In this document: positions 44,296 to 52,791 of the stretch, one piece after another | Position numbering within the stretch: the first letter of the stretch is position 1 | How the letters are laid out: every line of letters starts with the position of its first letter | Assembly (NCBI GenBank): GCA_965223965.1 | Contig: CBDCXX010000002.1 | Coordinates: 56,132 to 120,131, forward strand | Length of the DNA stretch: 64,000 bases | Direction: 5' to 3' | Source: Phototrophicaceae bacterium | Lineage (GTDB): Bacteria > Chloroflexota > Anaerolineae > Aggregatilineales > Phototrophicaceae | Notes under the pieces: model-generated | What the model was told of the DNA's origin: nothing | The model's input: the letters and a program-made list of their open reading frames with translations, nothing else | Database searches by the model: none | Translations under genes and position numbers: made by a program

Positions 44296-46269
44296 ATGAC
44301 CGATGCGAAGTGGAAGCTAATGGTGGACTGGCAGGGCGATGGAGAGTTCGCGGGCGCTGACGACGATATTGCGCCCGCAGCGCTAGGTCTGTCGCTGCGG
44401 CACATGCGAGATCTGAGAAGCGAGTATATTGATCCGGCGCGGCTGCACATTCGGCTGGCGAACTTCGACCACAAGTACAGTCCGCCCAACACGGCATCGC
44501 CTCTGTTCGGCGCGCTCAAGCCGGGACGCAAGGTGTGGCTGCGCGCCGCGTTCCCGTGCGATGAGTTCGGCGATATGGCGGGCGCAAGACTCGCTGACCA
44601 CGCGCCCGAATGCGGCGCGGCGTATCGCTGGACTGATGCCAACCATGACTTTCGCATTGCTGCCGGCGGCGCACAGATTAACGGCGCGCAGACGGATGGC
44701 GCTCGCTCCGGACGACGCATCGCAACGATGAACTTCGGCCTTGCGGATGTGTCGTTCGGCTGCGATTTCACGCGCGGAAGCAATGCGACGCGGCATGGCG
44801 GGCTCACCCTGCGATATGCGGACGCCGACAACTTTCTGTATGTGCGTGCTATGCCCAACGCGGTGCAGGTTCGCAGAGTAGAGCAAGGAAGCGATGCACT
44901 GGTGGCTGAGTCGGCTCTGCAATGGAACGCGGGAGACAAGAAGTTCATTCAGGCGGAGTTGCACGGCGACTCTATTCGAGTGTTTGTTGATGAGAAGCAA
45001 GTGATAGCGGCGCGCTCAGGGTTCAACCGCAACGCAACGCGGCACGGCTTGCACTGCGATGGCGCAGCCGATCACCTGTGGCAGCAGTTCGGAGGCTGGG
45101 TATCGCTCTTCTACGGCGATGTCGAGAGCATCGACCCGCAGCCCGGATCGGGTCCCGGATCGGGGCAATGTCGCATACGCGCTTACGACGAAATGCGTCG
45201 CCTCGAGAGCGTAACGCTGTACATGTACGCAACATCCTCATTTCCTCAAACATCCGATGAAATCCTCAGAGACATACTGGACTATGCGAGCGTTGACGCA
45301 AGCATTCGCAGGCTGGATGCGGGCACAGAACTTGTGCCGCAGTTATGGAGTCCGCCGCTCTGGGGAGTGCAGGCTGCGGATGAGATTCGGCGCCTGCAGG
45401 ATGAAGAGGACGGCTTCATCTATGTGGACGGGCATGGCTTCTGGCGCATGGAGAGTCGCGGTCACCGTGAAGCGGCGCCGCACTCGGCGGCAAGAGCGAC
45501 GCTGAGGGCGCGCAATGACGGCGCAGATGCCTACTTCTCCGCCCTGGAGTGGAGCGACGGTGTGGGCAACATCGAAAACAAGGTCTTCATGCGAGTCCGC
45601 GACGCCGCGAACCACGGACATCGCACGGCCTGGACGCTTGGCGAGACGCCGCGCTTCGACGTGGGCGAGACGCGCGAGTTCCTCGCCGAAAGCAAGGACT
45701 TCGATGTCGTTGGTGGACAGCTCAGTCCGCAGGCGAGCACCGACTATGCGGCAAACACGCAACCCGACGGCACGGGCGCTGACATCACAGCGCAGCTCAC
45801 CGTTACATATTCCGCGACGAGGCTATTCAACGGCAAGGGCGCCCTGATACGCGTGCGCTTCGGCGCAACGGCAGGCTACCTGACACGGCTGGGGATGCGC
45901 ACCGTTAACGCTTTGACCTTCAATGCGCCGGTGCTGGTGACCGCAGAGGACACGAACAGCCAGAACACTTATGGGCAGCGCATTCGCAGCATAGACGCTC
46001 GCTGGACGCGCGAGGCGCAGTCGGCGCAGGCAACAATCGCGCGGCGATTGGCTCGCAAGTCTTCGCCCCGCACCGCGCTCAGTGTGACTCTGCCCAACGG
46101 CTCGGATGCCAATCTGCTTCTGATGCTGCAAACGAAGTTGTCAGATCGGCTCGCCGTGCATTACGAGGACATGGGCGTGGACGGCGACTTCTTCGTGGAA
46201 GGCTACACGCTCGAAGTGGGGCAATCGGGAAAACATCTGGAGCGGACGCTGCTATTGCAGCAGGCATGA
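44296..46269 (+). CDS. Phage distal-tail (Dit)-like protein with an inserted lectin/LamG-like module
   Basis: 657 aa. N-terminus (WKLMVDWQGDGEF...RLHIRLANFDHKYSPPNTASPLFGALKPGRKVWL) resembles phage tail family proteins. The middle segment (GGLTLRYADADNFLYVRA...IQAELHGDSIRVFVDEKQV) looks like a concanavalin/LamG-type jelly roll. Confidence 0.45.
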   Translation: MTDAKWKLMVDWQGDGEFAGADDDIAPAALGLSLRHMRDLRSEYIDPARLHIRLANFDHKYSPPNTASPLFGALKPGRKVWLRAAFPCDEFGDMAGARLADHAPECGAAYRWTDANHDFRIAAGGAQINGAQTDGARSGRRIATMNFGLADVSFGCDFTRGSNATRHGGLTLRYADADNFLYVRAMPNAVQVRRVEQGSDALVAESALQWNAGDKKFIQAELHGDSIRVFVDEKQVIAARSGFNRNATRHGLHCDGAADHLWQQFGGWVSLFYGDVESIDPQPGSGPGSGQCRIRAYDEMRRLESVTLYMYATSSFPQTSDEILRDILDYASVDASIRRLDAGTELVPQLWSPPLWGVQAADEIRRLQDEEDGFIYVDGHGFWRMESRGHREAAPHSAARATLRARNDGADAYFSALEWSDGVGNIENKVFMRVRDAANHGHRTAWTLGETPRFDVGETREFLAESKDFDVVGGQLSPQASTDYAANTQPDGTGADITAQLTVTYSATRLFNGKGALIRVRFGATAGYLTRLGMRTVNALTFNAPVLVTAEDTNSQNTYGQRIRSIDARWTREAQSAQATIARRLARKSSPRTALSVTLPNGSDANLLLMLQTKLSDRLAVHYEDMGVDGDFFVEGYTLEVGQSGKHLERTLLLQQA

Positions 46270-46346
46270 TTTGCGTTCTCAATCAGACTTAGGAACCCCT
46301 ACCCTCTCTGAGGGGAAGGGAAGGTTAGGGGAAAGGAGACTGAAAG

Positions 46347-46559
46347 TTGGTTAGCGACTTGATTCAGTTCATCAACATAGGATTGGCGGGCGTGCTGCTT
46401 ATGTGGTTCATGTTCCGGCTGGAGCGCATGCTCGTGCGCCTCGACAAGACCCTGCAGCTAATGGCGCGCGCCACGCTGAGGATGCTCGACCGCCGCGACC
46501 CCAAGACGGCAACAGACCTCAGCAAGGAGCTGTATCGTATGAGCGGGGATGAGGATTAG
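46347..46559 (+). CDS. Small membrane protein (N-terminal TM, C-terminal helical tail), holin-like size
   Basis: 70 aa with TTG start and AAGGAG 8 nt upstream. INIGLAGVLLMWFMF TM segment. Confidence 0.4.
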   Translation: MVSDLIQFINIGLAGVLLMWFMFRLERMLVRLDKTLQLMARATLRMLDRRDPKTATDLSKELYRMSGDED

Positions 46560-47290
46560 GATTGCCGACCGCGCAATTCGGCTTCCAACTCACGGATGTG
46601 CGCCTGGGCTGCGGCAAGGTCGTCTTGGGCTGCAGCAAGGCTGCGGACATAATTGCCTATTTCGGGATCGTAGAATAGCAGCCTGTCCATGCGAACACTG
46701 TCGGCGATCGGATGCATGCCTTCTTGCGCGCACAGACTCAGTCCCAATAGCGCGCTGTAACCGCTCACCAAACCGTCGGAGTTGACTTCCAGCTCAATTG
46801 GCTCGTATGCGCCGCCAACCAGTATGTCGCCTGCAAGCGACGCGTCGTAGTAATTGCCGCCGCTCGGATCGAAACGCCAATATTCCTTGACGCCGATGCG
46901 TTCGTACAGGTCTCGCTTGTCTGTGAGGTCCCGCCGCGCCGTTGACGGAGAGGCTATCTCCAGTGCGAAGTCCGGCGCTTTGCCCACTTGCCATATCAGA
47001 TAGCCGTTCTGCGCGAATATGGCTCCGGCGTCCACACCGAAGGCGACATAGCAGTCTGGGAAAACCCTGTCGTTAAGGTTGTCGGGATTGTAGCAGACTA
47101 CGGTGTTTCCGTCGACGAACACGGTCGGATCGTCTTTATAATAGTTTTCCAAGATAGTCAAAGCGTCAGTGAAGTTCGGTCTCTGGAACATAGCATCCGG
47201 CATCTGATTGAGTTCACCGGGCAAGTCGCGCGGGTCTATAATGGGAAGGGCGTTCGTCATAGCATGCAACGGTATGGACTTTGTAGTCAT
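46556..47290 (-). CDS. Uma2 family (DUF820) endonuclease
   Basis: ATG 47290 (GGAGGCGAGGTGAT upstream). PDFALEIASPSTARRDLTDKRDLYERIGVKEYWRFDP is the Uma2 PD-(D/E)xK core. Confidence 0.8.
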   Translation of the reverse strand: MTTKSIPLHAMTNALPIIDPRDLPGELNQMPDAMFQRPNFTDALTILENYYKDDPTVFVDGNTVVCYNPDNLNDRVFPDCYVAFGVDAGAIFAQNGYLIWQVGKAPDFALEIASPSTARRDLTDKRDLYERIGVKEYWRFDPSGGNYYDASLAGDILVGGAYEPIELEVNSDGLVSGYSALLGLSLCAQEGMHPIADSVRMDRLLFYDPEIGNYVRSLAAAQDDLAAAQAHIRELEAELRGRQS

Positions 47291-47330
47291 ATCACCTCGC
47301 CTCCGTCTCATTCGTCCATGTCAATGCCCG

Positions 47331-48353
47331 TCAATCCCGTTGATACACCTGTATGCGGTGCCGCGACGACTCCGTCACATACATCCGCCCCTCGCTGTCG
47401 AAGTTCACGGACGCCGGTCCCCAGAAGTACGGCTCGATTTGCGAAGAGATCAGGTGCCGCGTGTTGAAGTGAGGAGGCAGTTCCGGCGTTAGGTTGGAAA
47501 TCTTGCGCGTCTCAACCTCGTCCGGGTTGGCGGCGAGGAAGTCATACGCCCACTTGGAGAGCGTAGCCTCGCCTAGAAGCGTCATCAGGTGGCTGCCGTC
47601 CCCGGCTAGTACCTGCACGCGCTCGTTGCCCCAGTCCGCGACATAGATGTTGCCGTCCGCGTCAACCGCCACGCCTGCCGGGCGTGTGAACTGGCCGTCG
47701 CCGTAGCCTGATTCGCCGAACTTCGCTATGAACTCGCCGTCCGCGCTGAATTGCTGGATGCGGTCATTGCGCCAGTCCGCCACGAAGATGCTGCCGTCCG
47801 GCGCGACGCAGATGCCCCAGGGCATGTTCATCTCGCCATCGCCGCTGCCCTCGCTGCCGAAGCTGATGAGGTGGCGACCCTCGGGCGTGAACTTCTGCGC
47901 GCGATGGTTGTTCTGGTCAGTGATGTACAGGTTGTCCTCGGCGTCAACTGCGATGCCGGATGGACCGTTGAGCTCCCCCGGCTCGCTGCCCAGAGCGCCC
48001 CAAGCCCTTACGAAGTCGCCGCTGTCCGCGTCAAAGGCGCTGATGCGATGGTTGTACTCGTCCGAGACATAGACACTGCTGCCGTCGTTGCTCAGCGCGA
48101 TGCCTGCCGCGAGCCTCAACTGGCCCTCCCCGTTTCCGTGCGAAGAGAACTCGTACAGATAGTCGTCGGTCATGTTAGTGACGCCGATGCGCGTGAACAC
48201 GGGCGCGCCGCGATTCAGCACGAAGATGCGCCCATCCGCGTGTACCGCGAGGTCAACCGGATTGGCGAAACCGCGCCCCACCGGAGCGTTGTTCACGATT
48301 CCTATCGTCTTCACATATTCGAGCTTCAGCGTCTTTGCGGCGGAAGTGGTCAT
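47331..48353 (-). CDS. NHL-repeat beta-propeller protein
   Basis: Six repeats of the G.F..P.G(I/V)AVD.(D/E)G.(I/L)YV(A/S/T)D..N.R(I/V)Q.F type. ATG 48353 is preferred over the track start 48419. Confidence 0.75.
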   Translation of the reverse strand: MTTSAAKTLKLEYVKTIGIVNNAPVGRGFANPVDLAVHADGRIFVLNRGAPVFTRIGVTNMTDDYLYEFSSHGNGEGQLRLAAGIALSNDGSSVYVSDEYNHRISAFDADSGDFVRAWGALGSEPGELNGPSGIAVDAEDNLYITDQNNHRAQKFTPEGRHLISFGSEGSGDGEMNMPWGICVAPDGSIFVADWRNDRIQQFSADGEFIAKFGESGYGDGQFTRPAGVAVDADGNIYVADWGNERVQVLAGDGSHLMTLLGEATLSKWAYDFLAANPDEVETRKISNLTPELPPHFNTRHLISSQIEPYFWGPASVNFDSEGRMYVTESSRHRIQVYQRD

Positions 48354-48429
48354 TGATGCACCTTTTTTCTTATCCGTATATGATGCGAGCAGATAAGTCG
48401 TGATTTCGTTGACAGTCATTGATTGGTGT

Positions 48430-48750
48430 TTATGCTTGTCTTTCTATGATGGCTATGTGTTCCGGCATACGATTAAGCCAATCGCGGATACAGGATTCAT
48501 CCTCTGGGCTTATGTCGCGCCTTTGAACGTATTCTGTGAGCGCTAATTGCAGATCATCTTTGTCAATTGGAGTAACAACGTGGGGGCTAAGCACATCAGC
48601 GCATATAACGTTGAGCTCATTGCTGTGTGCAAACTTATACACCACGTCTTCATCTTTTCTATCGGGTCGGAAGTAATCGTATTGAATTACATCAACGAGC
48701 GCGCTCTTATTCTCTCGCTGTGTCATATTACGTATATCACCCTCCGTCAC
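48430..48750 (-). CDS. Hypothetical acidic protein, translationally coupled to the PLD nuclease gene
   Basis: 106 aa. ATG overlaps the upstream stop (ATGA at 48747-48750). No family recognised. AT-rich. Confidence 0.45.
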   Translation of the reverse strand: MTEGDIRNMTQRENKSALVDVIQYDYFRPDRKDEDVVYKFAHSNELNVICADVLSPHVVTPIDKDDLQLALTEYVQRRDISPEDESCIRDWLNRMPEHIAIIERQA

Positions 48751-49637
48751 TTCAACTTCCAGCGTTCATTCTCTAATATGATAACGCCTCGTTGTTTCAA
48801 AATTTGCTGAGCATTGCGCATGCTATGCTTCCAATGATTGTCGCCAAGAAAAGTTTCCCCCTTAATGATAAGGTCAACGTTATCGTCGCACCACTCAGGC
48901 ATCAACTCTTGAACCAGCGGATATATTTCGATAGTGGACAAGGCGCCGCGCCGACGCAGGACATATTTTAACGCATCTGTAAACTTGGCAGTAATAGTTG
49001 CCTCTGGGTTAACAAGGAACTCTTCAGTAGCGTTTCGCAGCTCCCTTAGCTTGGCATCAATGTTGTTGAGTAGATGGTCGTATTCTGCGCCAGTGTCTGA
49101 CATTATATCGTCTATGTCAGACTTAGTTTGCCGTGCCTTATCCGCCAAGTCGTCCAGATCAGCCAGAGAGTCGGCTGGAACCGATATACCGAAACTGCCG
49201 TATTCGCGCAAATCATTGGATATGTCGCTAACCGCTTGAGGGTCAGTAATCGCAACGCCCAGTTCGTAATTTCGCCAAATCCCACCAGCAGTGAGATTTG
49301 CAGATGTAACAATGGCGGTGTGCCTGTCAGCGACATAGGCTTTGGCGTGAAGATAACGGAGATGGCGCACGGCAGCGCCTGGTACTTGCTCGCATAACCA
49401 AGAAAGCGCTCCCGCATCCACTGAACCGTCACGGAGGCTATCCCTGTTCAAATTAGTCAATATGTCTAATTGTACCGACTGTGGAAACCGCAAGCCGCTT
49501 TCTAATCGCTCTACAGGTTCTCTTGTGATGAAAGGCGCTGCGATAATAGCCGAATGTTGAATCGAATCAATAAATTGGTCGAAGGTGGTTTGCCAAGGTG
49601 ACTTGATGGACAGCAATTTCGGCATCCCATCCACCAA
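48747..49637 (-). CDS. Phospholipase D-family (single HKD) nuclease with a C-terminal winged-helix (Mrr_N-like) domain
   Basis: 296 aa. HKD motif LHAKAYVADRHTAIVTSANLT. The C-terminal ...ALKYVLRRRG.LSTIEIYPLV...WKHSMRNAQQILKQRGVI...RWKL resembles restriction-system wHTH domains. Confidence 0.65.
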   Translation of the reverse strand: MVDGMPKLLSIKSPWQTTFDQFIDSIQHSAIIAAPFITREPVERLESGLRFPQSVQLDILTNLNRDSLRDGSVDAGALSWLCEQVPGAAVRHLRYLHAKAYVADRHTAIVTSANLTAGGIWRNYELGVAITDPQAVSDISNDLREYGSFGISVPADSLADLDDLADKARQTKSDIDDIMSDTGAEYDHLLNNIDAKLRELRNATEEFLVNPEATITAKFTDALKYVLRRRGALSTIEIYPLVQELMPEWCDDNVDLIIKGETFLGDNHWKHSMRNAQQILKQRGVIILENERWKLK

Positions 49638-49710
49638 TCAGTAATTGGTGGAAATGAAACGGATGGGCAGGACGCAACGATGAATCGTCTCGCCCATCCG
49701 TATGTATTTA

Positions 49711-51165
49711 TTATACTAGCTGGTACTCCGTGGTCGATGCGATGAGGCCAAGCAACTCGCAGATACGCCGCTCACACTTGCCTCCCTTCTCCCCGCCCGT
49801 AAGCGAAATATCGCCCTGCATGCCCACATGCGCGATGAGCGCCGCGCGCAACTCAATATCCATCTCGGCGGTGCCCATGATGTCGAGGCAGGCGTCCACA
49901 ATCTCAGACGGCGCGTACTCGCCACCGTTTTGCTCTGCCAGTCTGTCGAGCAATAGCCGCACGCCCGGCGCGTTGATGTCGCTAATCTCCTTGGCGGCGA
50001 AGTTGACGCGCTCCACCAGCGCGCCGCTGTTGATCCACTCCGTGCCCTCATGCCAGCCCTCCACCGACGGAGGGTTGAGCAGCGTCTGCCCCATGAAGCC
50101 GGAAAGGTCCGAAGTCGGGAGGATGCCCATGTCCGGGCGTGTAACGCTGCCGCTGAGCCGCATCGTGCCCGCGACCAGCTCTGCCGGACACTTGACACGC
50201 GCGTACTGCGCCTCTTTGAAGAAGTCGGAGTTGAAGAGCACGCGCAGCATGTGGCGAATCTCGTGGTTGCCGTCGAAATATGCCTGCGACAGTTCGTCGA
50301 TGGCATCGGGGTCGCGCGGCGCGGTGTACGGCCACTGCGAAACCGGCTCTTCGTCAGCTACGAAGAAGTCGTACAGATGTCGGGCGATGAAGCGAGCCGT
50401 CGCGGGCTGCTTGCAAACAATGCGCACAATGTCGTCGCCGTTGAAGTTGCCTGTCTCGCCGAGGAACTGCTTCTCGCCGTCATCATGGTCGCCATCGCGG
50501 AAGTTGAAGTGCCACGCGATTCTGCCATAAGGCCAGATGGAGTCCTTCGATGCGCGCACCGCCATGTACTCCGCGTTGCCCAGCGTCCAGCCGGTGAATG
50601 CGCGGGAGGCTTCCTTGATGTCGTCCTCGGTGTAGTTGCCTATGCCCATGCTGAAGAGTTCCAGCAGCTCGCGGCCCCAGTTCTCGTTGATGGCGCCGTC
50701 GTGATTCTCCTGGTTGTCCAGCCAGATAATCATCGACGGGTCCTTGGCGAGGTCGATCAGCAGGTCGTCGAGCTTGCCAAGTCCCAGCCTGCGGAACATG
50801 TCGATCTGGTTCAGCAGCGAGCGCGCCTGGTTCGTCTTTGCGTAGCCGGTGGCGAATACGCCGTGCCAGAAGAGCGCAACCTTCTCCTCCGTCGGCGCCT
50901 TCGTGGTCACCATTCGGTAGAGCCAGTAGGCGGAGGCGGAGTTGCCATAGCGCAGTTCGTGCATGTCGGTGTGATAGCGCTTGATGATGTCGTCCGGCAT
51001 ATTCTGCGCGTCGCCGGGATGAAGCAGCTCCTCGACCGCAGCCTCATAGCCCAGTTCCTCGTAATGATCAAGCTCGACCGGCGTAGCGCCGAATGAAGCG
51101 CGCCGCAGCAAGTGCTTGATAAGTCCAACATCCGATTTCGTTGCAGTGGTCATATTCGCCTCCAA
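49711..51165 (-). CDS. DUF1800 domain protein
   Basis: 484 aa. LLRRASFGATP, ALFWHGVF, REL.ELFSMG and similar blocks are characteristic of DUF1800. Usually paired with DUF1501. Confidence 0.75.
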   Translation of the reverse strand: MEANMTTATKSDVGLIKHLLRRASFGATPVELDHYEELGYEAAVEELLHPGDAQNMPDDIIKRYHTDMHELRYGNSASAYWLYRMVTTKAPTEEKVALFWHGVFATGYAKTNQARSLLNQIDMFRRLGLGKLDDLLIDLAKDPSMIIWLDNQENHDGAINENWGRELLELFSMGIGNYTEDDIKEASRAFTGWTLGNAEYMAVRASKDSIWPYGRIAWHFNFRDGDHDDGEKQFLGETGNFNGDDIVRIVCKQPATARFIARHLYDFFVADEEPVSQWPYTAPRDPDAIDELSQAYFDGNHEIRHMLRVLFNSDFFKEAQYARVKCPAELVAGTMRLSGSVTRPDMGILPTSDLSGFMGQTLLNPPSVEGWHEGTEWINSGALVERVNFAAKEISDINAPGVRLLLDRLAEQNGGEYAPSEIVDACLDIMGTAEMDIELRAALIAHVGMQGDISLTGGEKGGKCERRICELLGLIASTTEYQLV

Positions 51166-51207
51166 GTTGGGGGTGTTGATTATATTTTCGTTCCTAGATG
51201 TGGAAAC

Positions 51208-51579
51208 TCAAAGTAGGAAAGCTTCACCTGGCACCAGACGCCTGTTATATGGGTCAACTGCTAAACGTAAGCCTTCAAGTGCATATGCGCCCAGTAAGGG
51301 CATCGAATCATCGTCGCCAAAGACTACAATTGTTATGGCCTGTTTGCCCCGGGCTCGTATCCAAGTCTGTCCAATATCAAGGTCAATTCGGCCTCCACCC
51401 GCCAAGGTGAACTCCACCGTTTCCATTGGCTCGACTTCGAGACGCTCAAGCAGCGATGTGGGCATGAAGCTATATGTCGCGCCCGTGTCCACCATCGGAT
51501 TCACAAGCTCAAACTGCGTTCCCGAAGGATTGCCAAGTTCGACGGGATATCGGAATGTTCCCACTCTGGTAACCCTCAT
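51208..51579 (-). CDS. Retropepsin-like (clan AA) aspartic protease
   Basis: 123 aa. VDTGAT active-site motif and GAYALEGL flap/dimer context. Sits between the DUF1501 and DUF1800 genes. Confidence 0.6.
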   Translation of the reverse strand: MRVTRVGTFRYPVELGNPSGTQFELVNPMVDTGATYSFMPTSLLERLEVEPMETVEFTLAGGGRIDLDIGQTWIRARGKQAITIVVFGDDDSMPLLGAYALEGLRLAVDPYNRRLVPGEAFLL

Positions 51580-51651
51580 TGCTATGCAGCTTAAAGTATA
51601 TGTACCTCGGTCAATCTCTTGGCGATTGGCTGGGGGACAAGATCGTAATCC

Positions 51652-52791
51652 CTACTTCTTGATGAACTCCAGCTTCTCGAAAGATCCATTCACGATCGGC
51701 TTGGCGTCCACGCCCATCCAGTCCTCCAGCAGCGTCGTGTACGCGCCGCGGAAGTCGTTGTTGAAGTGCATGTCGCCTTCGAGCTGGTCCTCGGGCGCGA
51801 GCGACGGGAAGTCGCCGTACAGGCCTCCCTTGACGCCGCCGCCTATGACGAACGCCACGCCTCCTGAGCCGTGGTCGGTGCCGGAACCGTTGTCCTTGAT
51901 GCGCCGCCCGAACTCGGAGAAGATGACGATTGCCGTGTCGTTTTCATAGCCATGCTCTTCCACATCATCCCAGAAGTCGCCGACCGCGTTGGACAGCTCG
52001 CCGATGAGCTTCGCATGCATGGGAACTTCGCCCGCATGCGTATCGTAGCTGCCCTGACCCGTGTAGAAGATGCGTGTGCCGATGTCCCCGAACATCACCT
52101 GCGCGGCATCCCGCAAGCTCTGCGCTATCGAAGTGTCGGCATACTCGATGCTCGACGAGTAGTTGCGCGGAGCGGTGCCCAGCGTATCGGCGCCCTGCAT
52201 CACGCCACGCCCCGTCTGCTGGATGAACTCTTTGACAGCATCCTTGCCCGAGCCGCCATACATCTGCGAGAACATATCCAGCGTCTGGTTGCGGATAGCC
52301 TCGTCGCGGATGTCCGGATACAGCCCGTATGTTGCGAGATCGCCGACCGACGCCACTGGAACGCCCTGCGCCGAAAGAACGCGAGGCAGGCCGCGACCGA
52401 AGTTGACGGCCGTCAGCACATTCTCGCCCTGCGGATCGAGGTCGCGCGTGAGCTGACCCAGCCAGCCTTCTGTGGCGACCTTCGTCGGCTCGGCGGTGTG
52501 CCAGATGTCCATCGAGCGGAAGTGAGAGCGGTTCGGGTTCGGGTAGCCGATGCCGTTGATGACGGCGACCTTGCCCTCGTCCCACAGCCTCTTGATTGCA
52601 GTCATATTCGGGTTCAACCCGATGTTGCCGTCCAGCTCCAGCAGCTCTTCGGGCTGAAACTGCACCGCAGGACGGAAATTGTAATAGTGCTCATCGTTAA
52701 TGGGAACGACCGTATTAAGCGCGTCGTTGCCTCCTGTGAGCTGTACAAACACCAAAGATTTGCTATGCCCGTTGCTGCCATTGGAACCCAT
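51652..52791 (-). CDS. DUF1501 domain protein (sulfatase/phosphatase-like fold)
   Basis: 379 aa. GGND.LN.VVP, RSHF.S.DIW and SEFGRR...NGSGTDHG blocks are typical of DUF1501. No obvious Tat signal in this ORF. Confidence 0.75.
   Translation of the reverse strand: MGSNGSNGHSKSLVFVQLTGGNDALNTVVPINDEHYYNFRPAVQFQPEELLELDGNIGLNPNMTAIKRLWDEGKVAVINGIGYPNPNRSHFRSMDIWHTAEPTKVATEGWLGQLTRDLDPQGENVLTAVNFGRGLPRVLSAQGVPVASVGDLATYGLYPDIRDEAIRNQTLDMFSQMYGGSGKDAVKEFIQQTGRGVMQGADTLGTAPRNYSSSIEYADTSIAQSLRDAAQVMFGDIGTRIFYTGQGSYDTHAGEVPMHAKLIGELSNAVGDFWDDVEEHGYENDTAIVIFSEFGRRIKDNGSGTDHGSGGVAFVIGGGVKGGLYGDFPSLAPEDQLEGDMHFNNDFRGAYTTLLEDWMGVDAKPIVNGSFEKLEFIKK

Follow-up and report, generated by a model that had tools for sequence, protein, structure and literature searches.

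Endonucleases in which a phospholipase D (PLD) domain is fused to a winged helix (wH) are known as candidate methylation-dependent type IV restriction enzymes from the work of Helbrecht et al. in 2024 (PMC11037411), and a gene of this PLD-wH architecture, followed directly by a small gene for an acidic protein, makes up the cassette considered here. The cassette occupies positions 48430 to 49625 on the reverse strand of a 64,000-nucleotide (nt) stretch, the window, of contig CBDCXX010000002.1 in the assembly GCA_965223965.1 of a sponge/marine Phototrophicaceae bacterium (Chloroflexota). Two PLD-wH enzymes have been cloned, Aba4572I (Anaerolineaceae) and CbaI (Chloroflexi), and the fusions were reported as candidate N6-methyladenine (6mA)-dependent enzymes which are toxic alone in E. 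coli, Aba4572I being an outlier that is toxic in Dam- cells too; neither enzyme could be over-expressed or purified (PMC11037411). A hypothetical protein is encoded downstream of each of the two, and 87% of all the winged-helix fusions studied have no methyltransferase (MTase) gene nearby, which argues for type IV restriction (PMC11037411). The reading of the present cassette that is preferred, at a little better than an even chance, is of an autonomous type IV-like PLD-wH endonuclease with a co-translated partner that would restrain or tune it. The enzyme class has been described, recently, and is biochemically uncharacterised; what is new at this locus is that the reader domain is Mrr_N-like and that the nuclease has a dedicated family of small proteins without a fold match.

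With the published enzymes, its closest known relatives, the nuclease of the window shares the single N-terminal PLD domain and C-terminal winged helix in one chain of ~280-295 amino acids (aa), the occurrence in Chloroflexi, the usual lack of an adjacent MTase gene and a small or hypothetical gene downstream. It differs in having a winged helix which is Mrr_N-like rather than DpnI_C-like, and in its conserved family of small partners. The likeness to Aba4572I and CbaI is drawn from their published description, and the sequence comparison was made with Chloroflexota PLD proteins carrying a Pfam DpnI_C winged helix (L076, L078 and L079; L numbers are our labels for genomic loci), to whose PLD domains that of the window is 31% identical over 122 aa (hhalign 98.6%). 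Downstream of these fusions lie an unrelated 101-aa open reading frame (ORF) at 12 nt in L076, an unrelated 80-aa ORF in L078 and a 493-aa ORF in L079, the last a possible MTase by sequence motif only.

BfiI is a PLD dimer with a C-terminal DNA-recognition domain, and its layout of catalytic N-terminal and DNA-binding C-terminal parts is that of the window protein, although BfiI binds DNA through a B3-like domain, not a winged helix, and has cognate MTases. One HKD motif per chain, implying a single active site made by a dimer, is common to the window protein, BfiI and Nuc, and Nuc is the best structural match, but Nuc is periplasmic and has no DNA-recognition domain. Mrr likewise joins an Mrr_N-type winged helix to a nuclease and is a stand-alone gene without an MTase; in the window protein however the winged helix is C-terminal, so the order is reversed, a PLD domain stands in place of the PD-(D/E)xK domain Mrr_cat, and the Pfam Mrr_N hidden Markov model (HMM) falls short. 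DrmC of DISARM, MkoB of Mokosh and DpdK, PLD nucleases that belong to multi-gene defence systems, resemble it in the region around the HKD motif (PADLOC DrmC models at 1e-8 to 1e-15, residues 94-145 only), whereas none of their partner genes is near the cassette. DISARM DrmC membership was rejected, the NCBIfam equivalog score being 54.6 against a cut-off of 133 bits and the neighbours being DUF1800 and NHL genes. Beyond such generic PLD and DrmC-motif matches, no system or family for the large protein came out of PADLOC, NCBIfam or PHROGs, and so an earlier sequence-only reading of the window, which could not match the cassette to a named defence system and proposed a PADLOC check, is borne out for PADLOC, but the PLD-wH architecture itself had been described. 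An Agrobacterium plasmid PLD protein with a small neighbour was also considered, and is unrelated to the pair beyond the PLD domain.

The PLD-wH nuclease

The nuclease gene (48747..49625 (-), 292 aa plus a TGA stop) lies in a frame that is open up to a TTG at 49637, and the 296 aa of the sequence-only reading are correct for the ORF 48747..49637 (-); the ATG at 49625 is nevertheless the likely true start, because the database gene call and all homologues begin at the equivalent Met. More than 200 full-length homologues with 52-81% identity conserve the whole architecture. The N-terminal domain (residues 1-150, 49176..49625 (-)) gives one Pfam PLDc_2 match per chain (E = 3.8e-11), and the RE_NgoFVII model of PLD restriction enzymes is matched by 11 of 22 family members. 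The single HKD motif that had been read as Nuc/BfiI-type is indeed present once per polypeptide, as LHAKAYVADRHTAIVTSANLT at 49290..49352 (-) with H93, K95, D100 and N110 read from the sequence; set against the consensus HxK(x)4D(x)6GSxN it runs LHAKAYVADRHTAIVTSAN, with TS replacing GS. Its H, K, S and N are kept in 36 of 36 intact homologues and its Asp in 35, the distant L055 having Asn instead.

An AlphaFold2 model of the protein (pLDDT 84, a predicted local distance difference test score) falls into three parts. The N-terminal alpha/beta domain has Nuc 1byr as its best Foldseek match (template-modelling (TM) score on the target 0.78, E = 1.8e-6, root-mean-square deviation 2.9), followed by NucT 6ehi and Zucchini 4ggj, the SauUSI nuclease domain also being matched, and a sequence search of the PDB with the nuclease returned PLD-domain matches only. 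Two long helices (residues 151-198) then link this domain to the C-terminal unit; they belong to an acidic linker of pI 4.1 (residues 151-205, 49011..49175 (-), modelled helices H151-173 and H178-198). The C-terminal 87 aa (residues 206-292, 48750..49010 (-)) are modelled as a helix-helix-hairpin-helix-hairpin unit.

This last unit had been likened to the Mrr_N-type domain of restriction proteins, and profile comparison supports the likeness. Against a profile built from 19 bona fide Mrr_N domains of Chloroflexota genomes the profile of the C-terminal domain scored 89.5% probability in hhalign (E = 2e-6, 73 of 88 columns), while the same protein supplied two controls, both at 0.2%, and nine pairings with unrelated proteins or alignments stayed within 0.1-0.5%. 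The same profile reached 8.3% against a DpnI_C profile, and the DpnI_C (PF17726) HMM has no match in the genome. The domain is therefore best described as a remote Mrr_N homologue and not as a member of Pfam Mrr_N, and since the winged helix is Mrr_N-like and not DpnI_C-like, a 6mA/GATC specificity is not transferable to it. The only PDB sequence matches of this domain, to a phage tail adaptor and to calmodulin, are weak, and homology to either is unsupported. A canonical Mrr_N protein is encoded elsewhere in the same genome (G000:C6:636940-637191, a 532-aa open frame, 100 bits). Taken at the level of sequence and predicted fold, the identification of the large protein as a single-HKD Nuc-type PLD nuclease with an Mrr_N-like winged helix is supported.

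The small acidic partner and its pairing with the nuclease

The partner gene (48430..48726 (-), 98 aa plus TAA) starts at the ATG at 48726 (MTQRE...), 20 nt past the PLD stop and behind the ribosome-binding site GGAGGGTGAT (48736..48745 (-)) inside that spacer; this start is favoured because the homologues begin MTQRD/E.... The sequence-only reading had instead given 106 aa, the length of the whole ORF 48430..48750 (-), beginning at an ATGA overlap with the nuclease stop at 48747-48750 and implying co-translation in that way. Neither detail stands, as the junction reads AAG TTG AAG TGA, in which a GTG overlaps the stop and bases 48750-48747 are GTGA. Its description of the product as acidic and unassignable does hold: the protein has pI 4.7 and a net charge of -8 (-2 to -16 across 19 members of the family), and has no family in Pfam, NCBIfam, PADLOC or PHROGs, a PDB sequence search with the family being empty too. 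It is predicted to be well folded, its AlphaFold2 model (pLDDT 84) having the order beta-alpha-alpha-beta-alpha-alpha-beta, for which a fold search of the PDB and of the BFVD viral models gave nothing significant (best E 0.7-1.7), and no recognisable helix-turn-helix (HTH), ribbon-helix-helix (RHH) or AbrB DNA-binding module is seen in Pfam, the model or the fold search.

A word search with the single sequence misleadingly found only two relatives of the small protein, and tblastn on genomic loci together with a profile search found ~74 clusters. The family is tiny: clustering at 90% identity leaves 74 clusters, and at 50% identity it has 26 representatives among 1.84 billion proteins, the convincing full-length ones among these representatives being stand-alone proteins of ~90-100 aa. 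Judged by these searches the small protein founds a new family, and it is confined to sponge and marine Chloroflexota. Both genes of the pair are conserved and under purifying selection, with a ratio of non-synonymous to synonymous substitution (dN/dS) of 0.07-0.20 in the small family. The residues invariant across that family are a Tyr, a Phe, a Cys, two Pro, a Trp and a Glu, a structural pattern which suggests a binding protein and not an enzyme.

To survey the pairing, tblastn was run over 26 loci of metagenome-assembled Dehalococcoidia genomes, many of which came from sponges. In 17 other loci the PLD gene is followed directly by a small homologue with ~55% identity, frameshifted in one of them, and in 18 loci the two genes overlap by 4 nt or are spaced by 0-20 nt, the overlaps reading ATGA in L007, L010 and L020 and GTGA in L022. 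Tight coupling is therefore a trait of the family even though the window copy has no overlap. Within the clade a family member adjoins 24 of 29 PLD genes, mere remnants being left out of the count, and every one of the 25 small-family genes seen in context adjoins a PLD-wH gene. Conserved pairing in other genomes, the co-occurrence test that the sequence-only reading had named, is thus found within this one clade, which a maximum-likelihood tree of the PLD proteins resolves with 100/100 support as the group of the partner-bearing nucleases. Partner-less PLDs (L016, L004, L021, L025 and the second copy in L002) and the PLD of L018, whose partner is frameshifted, are nested inside it, and on this tree they read as nested losses of the partner. 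In three loci a broken PLD gene stands beside an intact partner, with an in-frame stop in L019 and frameshifts in L023 and L024.

In eight loci a divergent paralogue of the partner, c82 (22-32% identical), lies upstream of PLD at a distance of ~100 nt. It usually follows another, unrelated gene, c155, and this makes somewhat more plausible the view that the small protein is a conserved sensor or activator in a two-component defence for which the nuclease is a swappable effector. In favour of that view the family has two branches, one lying downstream of PLD-wH and the other downstream of c155 in six of eight loci, still upstream of PLD-wH, and the small protein is under strong purifying selection even where the PLD gene is broken. 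However c82 adjoins PLD-wH in eight of eight loci, and the presence of c155 may thus be incidental; neither a nuclease nor any other domain could be detected in c155, for which Pfam, PADLOC, PDB sequences and JGI metagenomes gave no match; and PLD-wH has a sensor-like winged helix of its own and is a solo gene in most lineages. The sensor or activator reading is accordingly held to be improbable. As to c155 itself, the c155 and c82 genes form a pair directly upstream of PLD in L007:4790-5899, L012:4980-5899, L064:3344-4306 and L066:1-827, the c155 product being ~199 aa and 63-88% identical between loci; an E...D...SVK motif alone raises the suspicion that it may be a PD-(D/E)xK nuclease.

Other small proteins occur beside the nuclease. 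An unrelated acidic protein of ~145 aa, c126 (L002:6889-7335 and L025:6878-7306; 142-148 aa, with a CPxC motif), takes the place of the downstream partner after two PLD genes of the subclade nearest the window, that of L025 and the second copy of L002, and in L002 the order is PLD, the 98-aa partner, PLD and c126 in tandem. In hhalign comparisons c126 and the downstream proteins L076ds and L078ds were rejected as remote homologues of the small family.

Insertion and genomic setting

The cassette had been noted as markedly richer in A and T than its flanks, and this is so, with a GC content of 0.473 against 0.60 for the window and a third-position GC content of 0.44-0.50, where the DUF1800 and NHL genes on either side have 0.81. 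The upstream flank is the DUF1800 gene (49711..51165 (-), Pfam E = 2.9e-96) and the downstream flank an NHL-repeat propeller gene (47331..48353 (-), Pfam NHL E = 8e-43) that probably starts with MTTSAAK at 48353 and not at the ATG at 48419 of the longest ORF, the orthologues beginning MTT.... In L004 and L007 these two genes are only 14-119 nt apart with no cassette between them; the window, L001 (its closest relative) and L002 have the pair at this site, and in L002 it is also tandemly duplicated. Most other genomes carry the pair in a variable islet bordered by a luciferase-like monooxygenase gene and a methylmalonyl-CoA mutase gene. The pair occurs in two chromosomal contexts and has therefore moved as a unit, and the cassette is a horizontally acquired, compositionally foreign two-gene unit.

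The distribution of the nuclease is patchy. An even sample of 301 genomes of the class yielded 14 with a PLD-wH gene, spread across ~9 families, and 0 of 8 in the family to which the window belongs; the window's genome has one copy, and in this survey it alone has the small family. Searches for PLD-wH on phages and on IMG/VR contigs gave no match, and those on plasmids gave matches to the PLD domain only, none of them full-length. A truncated PLD remnant lies in the chromosome of Candidatus Entotheonella, a sponge symbiont of a different phylum (L027:5995-6330, 63% identical over residues 6-119), which suggests an exchange of the PLD gene among sponge symbionts.

The monooxygenase/mutase islet also holds a HigB toxin gene, a PD-Lambda-2_B-like gene and other small gene pairs, and it looks like a hot spot for toxin-antitoxin and defence genes; a defence-like neighbourhood is therefore seen for the homologous pairs. 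At ~16 loci (for example L005:5136-5821) the HigB gene is followed by one for a 130-aa protein that matches the N-terminus of PADLOC PD-Lambda-2_B (E = 4e-17), and in most genomes these two genes are directly upstream of the PLD pair. Downstream of the PLD pair a second pair, c40 and c78 (172 aa and 129 aa, with no assigned family), is variably present.

Such a locus, which accumulates many unrelated small genes, invites the explanation that the adjacency of nuclease and partner is coincidental and that the small gene is an independent hot-spot passenger, or else that PLD-wH supplies the restriction activity of a type II restriction-modification system whose MTase is unlinked and whose regulator, controller-like, is the small gene. 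The second form could draw on a complete N6/N4 MTase gene convergent with the PLD gene in L064 and an MTase remnant in L055. However no orthologue of the L064 MTase turned up in four other genomes with a PLD gene, and it is the only complete adjacent MTase, one in ~31 loci of the clade with none beside the window cassette; type II restriction-modification was rejected as a description of the system on this ground. Nor does coincidence sit well with an adjacency seen in 25 of 25 contexts, with the genes overlapping by 4 nt or at most 20 nt apart, or with the joint move of the pair to the second site between DUF1800 and NHL, and the small protein is acidic and alpha/beta and not an Xre-type helix-turn-helix controller. 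This explanation, in either form, is given very little weight, less than any of the other readings. The L064 gene itself (L064:5282-6124, of N6_N4 type) has a 9-nt 3' overlap with PLD-wH and stands at the usual partner spot, and in L055 a truncated SPPY MTase is in the same position.

Several features lie at or near the edges of the insertion. A palindrome CCACCAAT-tactg-ATTGGTGG (49631..49651 (-)) precedes the PLD start immediately and overlaps the likely ribosome-binding site of that gene; it is a possible operator or translational hairpin, and its arms co-vary in the closest relative L001 (CTAAT/ATTAG). It is missing from loci of the other genomic context, and these share a promoter-like element TTGCGC-N17/18-AATAAT upstream of PLD. 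Past the DUF1800 stop an inverted repeat forms a strong hairpin (49659..49701 (-); RNAfold -42.9 kcal/mol for a 112-nt stretch containing it) and marks the upstream boundary of the inserted cassette; an Rfam scan of 46000-52000 gave no match. Imperfect 16-nt inverted repeats (13/16; 48413-48428 and 49632-49647) stand exactly at both cassette edges, and the surroundings of the NHL start (ATCAATGAC) are duplicated in a direct repeat of 37 nt (70%; 48349-48385 and 48415-48451). These edge repeats could be traces of insertion or chance, and as transposon ends they were rejected, being too weak.

The cassette had further been placed in one accessory island with a Uma2 endonuclease gene and the NHL gene. 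The neighbours are as stated, but the NHL gene is conserved beside DUF1800 and belongs to no accessory island, and the adjoining Uma2 gene (46556-47311, PADLOC candidate family PDC-S03, E = 3e-12) is absent from the matching position in L001 and appears to be a separate insertion.

A proposed restrained restriction nuclease and its meaning

In the preferred reading two PLD-wH chains would dimerise so that their single-HKD domains pair, by analogy with Nuc and BfiI, into a single active site that needs no metal and proceeds via a phospho-histidine intermediate, and the Mrr_N-like winged helix, joined by the long helical linker, would select the DNA to cut. The target would most likely be modified or otherwise foreign DNA, making the protein a type IV-like, MTase-less restriction enzyme. 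The second gene would be translated from the same mRNA as the first, and its 98-aa acidic, non-enzymatic product would most likely bind the nuclease and restrain or tune it, as a safety catch, possibly as a DNA mimic, and not as an indispensable antidote. The partner is thus probably a regulator or inhibitor and not an essential antitoxin.

A number of points weigh against this reading. On the side of the DNA-reading domain, where the Mrr_N likeness holds in hhalign, the Pfam Mrr_N (PF14338) HMM is not significant, with two of 22 members at E ~0.04 and the gathering threshold out of reach, and a genome-wide search with it at E <= 10 finds only the canonical Mrr_N gene of the genome. The genome also has seven MTase genes, six with N6_N4-type matches and one of the D12 class ~12 kb before the window start, and these may or may not be in conflict with the predicted target of the winged helix. 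On the side of the partner, L016, L004, L021 and L025 come from complete genomes in which PLD-wH and its HKD motif are intact and no copy of the small family is found anywhere, the PLD gene being solo in L016 and having other neighbours in L004 and L021; in L018 an intact PLD stands beside a frameshifted partner; and ten more distant PLD-wH genes lie in unrelated contexts and have no small partner. Any inhibitory role must therefore be dispensable or absent, and the data set no direction for the regulation, so that the partner could be an inhibitor, an activator or a sensor.

The same solo nucleases bear more directly on a classical type II toxin-antitoxin reading, in which the PLD nuclease would be a growth-arresting toxin and the second gene would encode a labile and essential antitoxin, as in higBA or mqsRA. 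Much in the layout is as such a reading would have it: two small, tightly coupled and co-directional genes with a promoter-like element of their own, placed in hot spots beside HigB-type pairs, a partner that is kept where the nuclease is broken, and published PLD-wH enzymes that are toxic in E. coli (PMC11037411). An antitoxin should however always be retained with its toxin, and in its strict form the reading was rejected since it is not: four complete genomes have an intact nuclease and no family member, and a fifth has an intact nuclease whose neighbouring partner is frameshifted; the ten distant genes do without a partner, the partner-less cases are nested losses on the PLD tree, and the small protein has no HTH, RHH or AbrB module. 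Since the solo intact nucleases show that the partner is not an indispensable antidote, the toxin-antitoxin reading is lowered to a small chance. The proposal of a nuclease and immunity-like pair made from the sequence alone fares likewise, in that the repeated pairing and the joint movement stand by it, but strict immunity is contradicted by the solo PLD-wH genes.

A further and bolder extension of the restrained-nuclease reading, which is thought tentative and rather doubtful, would take the small proteins as a new family of nuclease safety catches, possibly DNA mimics, that hold PLD-wH inactive until a trigger releases it; the pair would then give sponge symbionts a two-component defence that is gated and resembles abortive infection. 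If the safety-catch reading is true it would explain the resistance of PLD-wH enzymes to expression alone. PLD-wH is the one class of winged-helix restriction nuclease that could not be expressed or purified (PMC11037411), and a co-translated partner suggests co-expression as a route. The Mrr_N-like reader found in place of a DpnI-like one shows a modular swap of DNA-sensing domains on one nuclease chassis, and the partner may be a new regulatory layer for MTase-less restriction enzymes.

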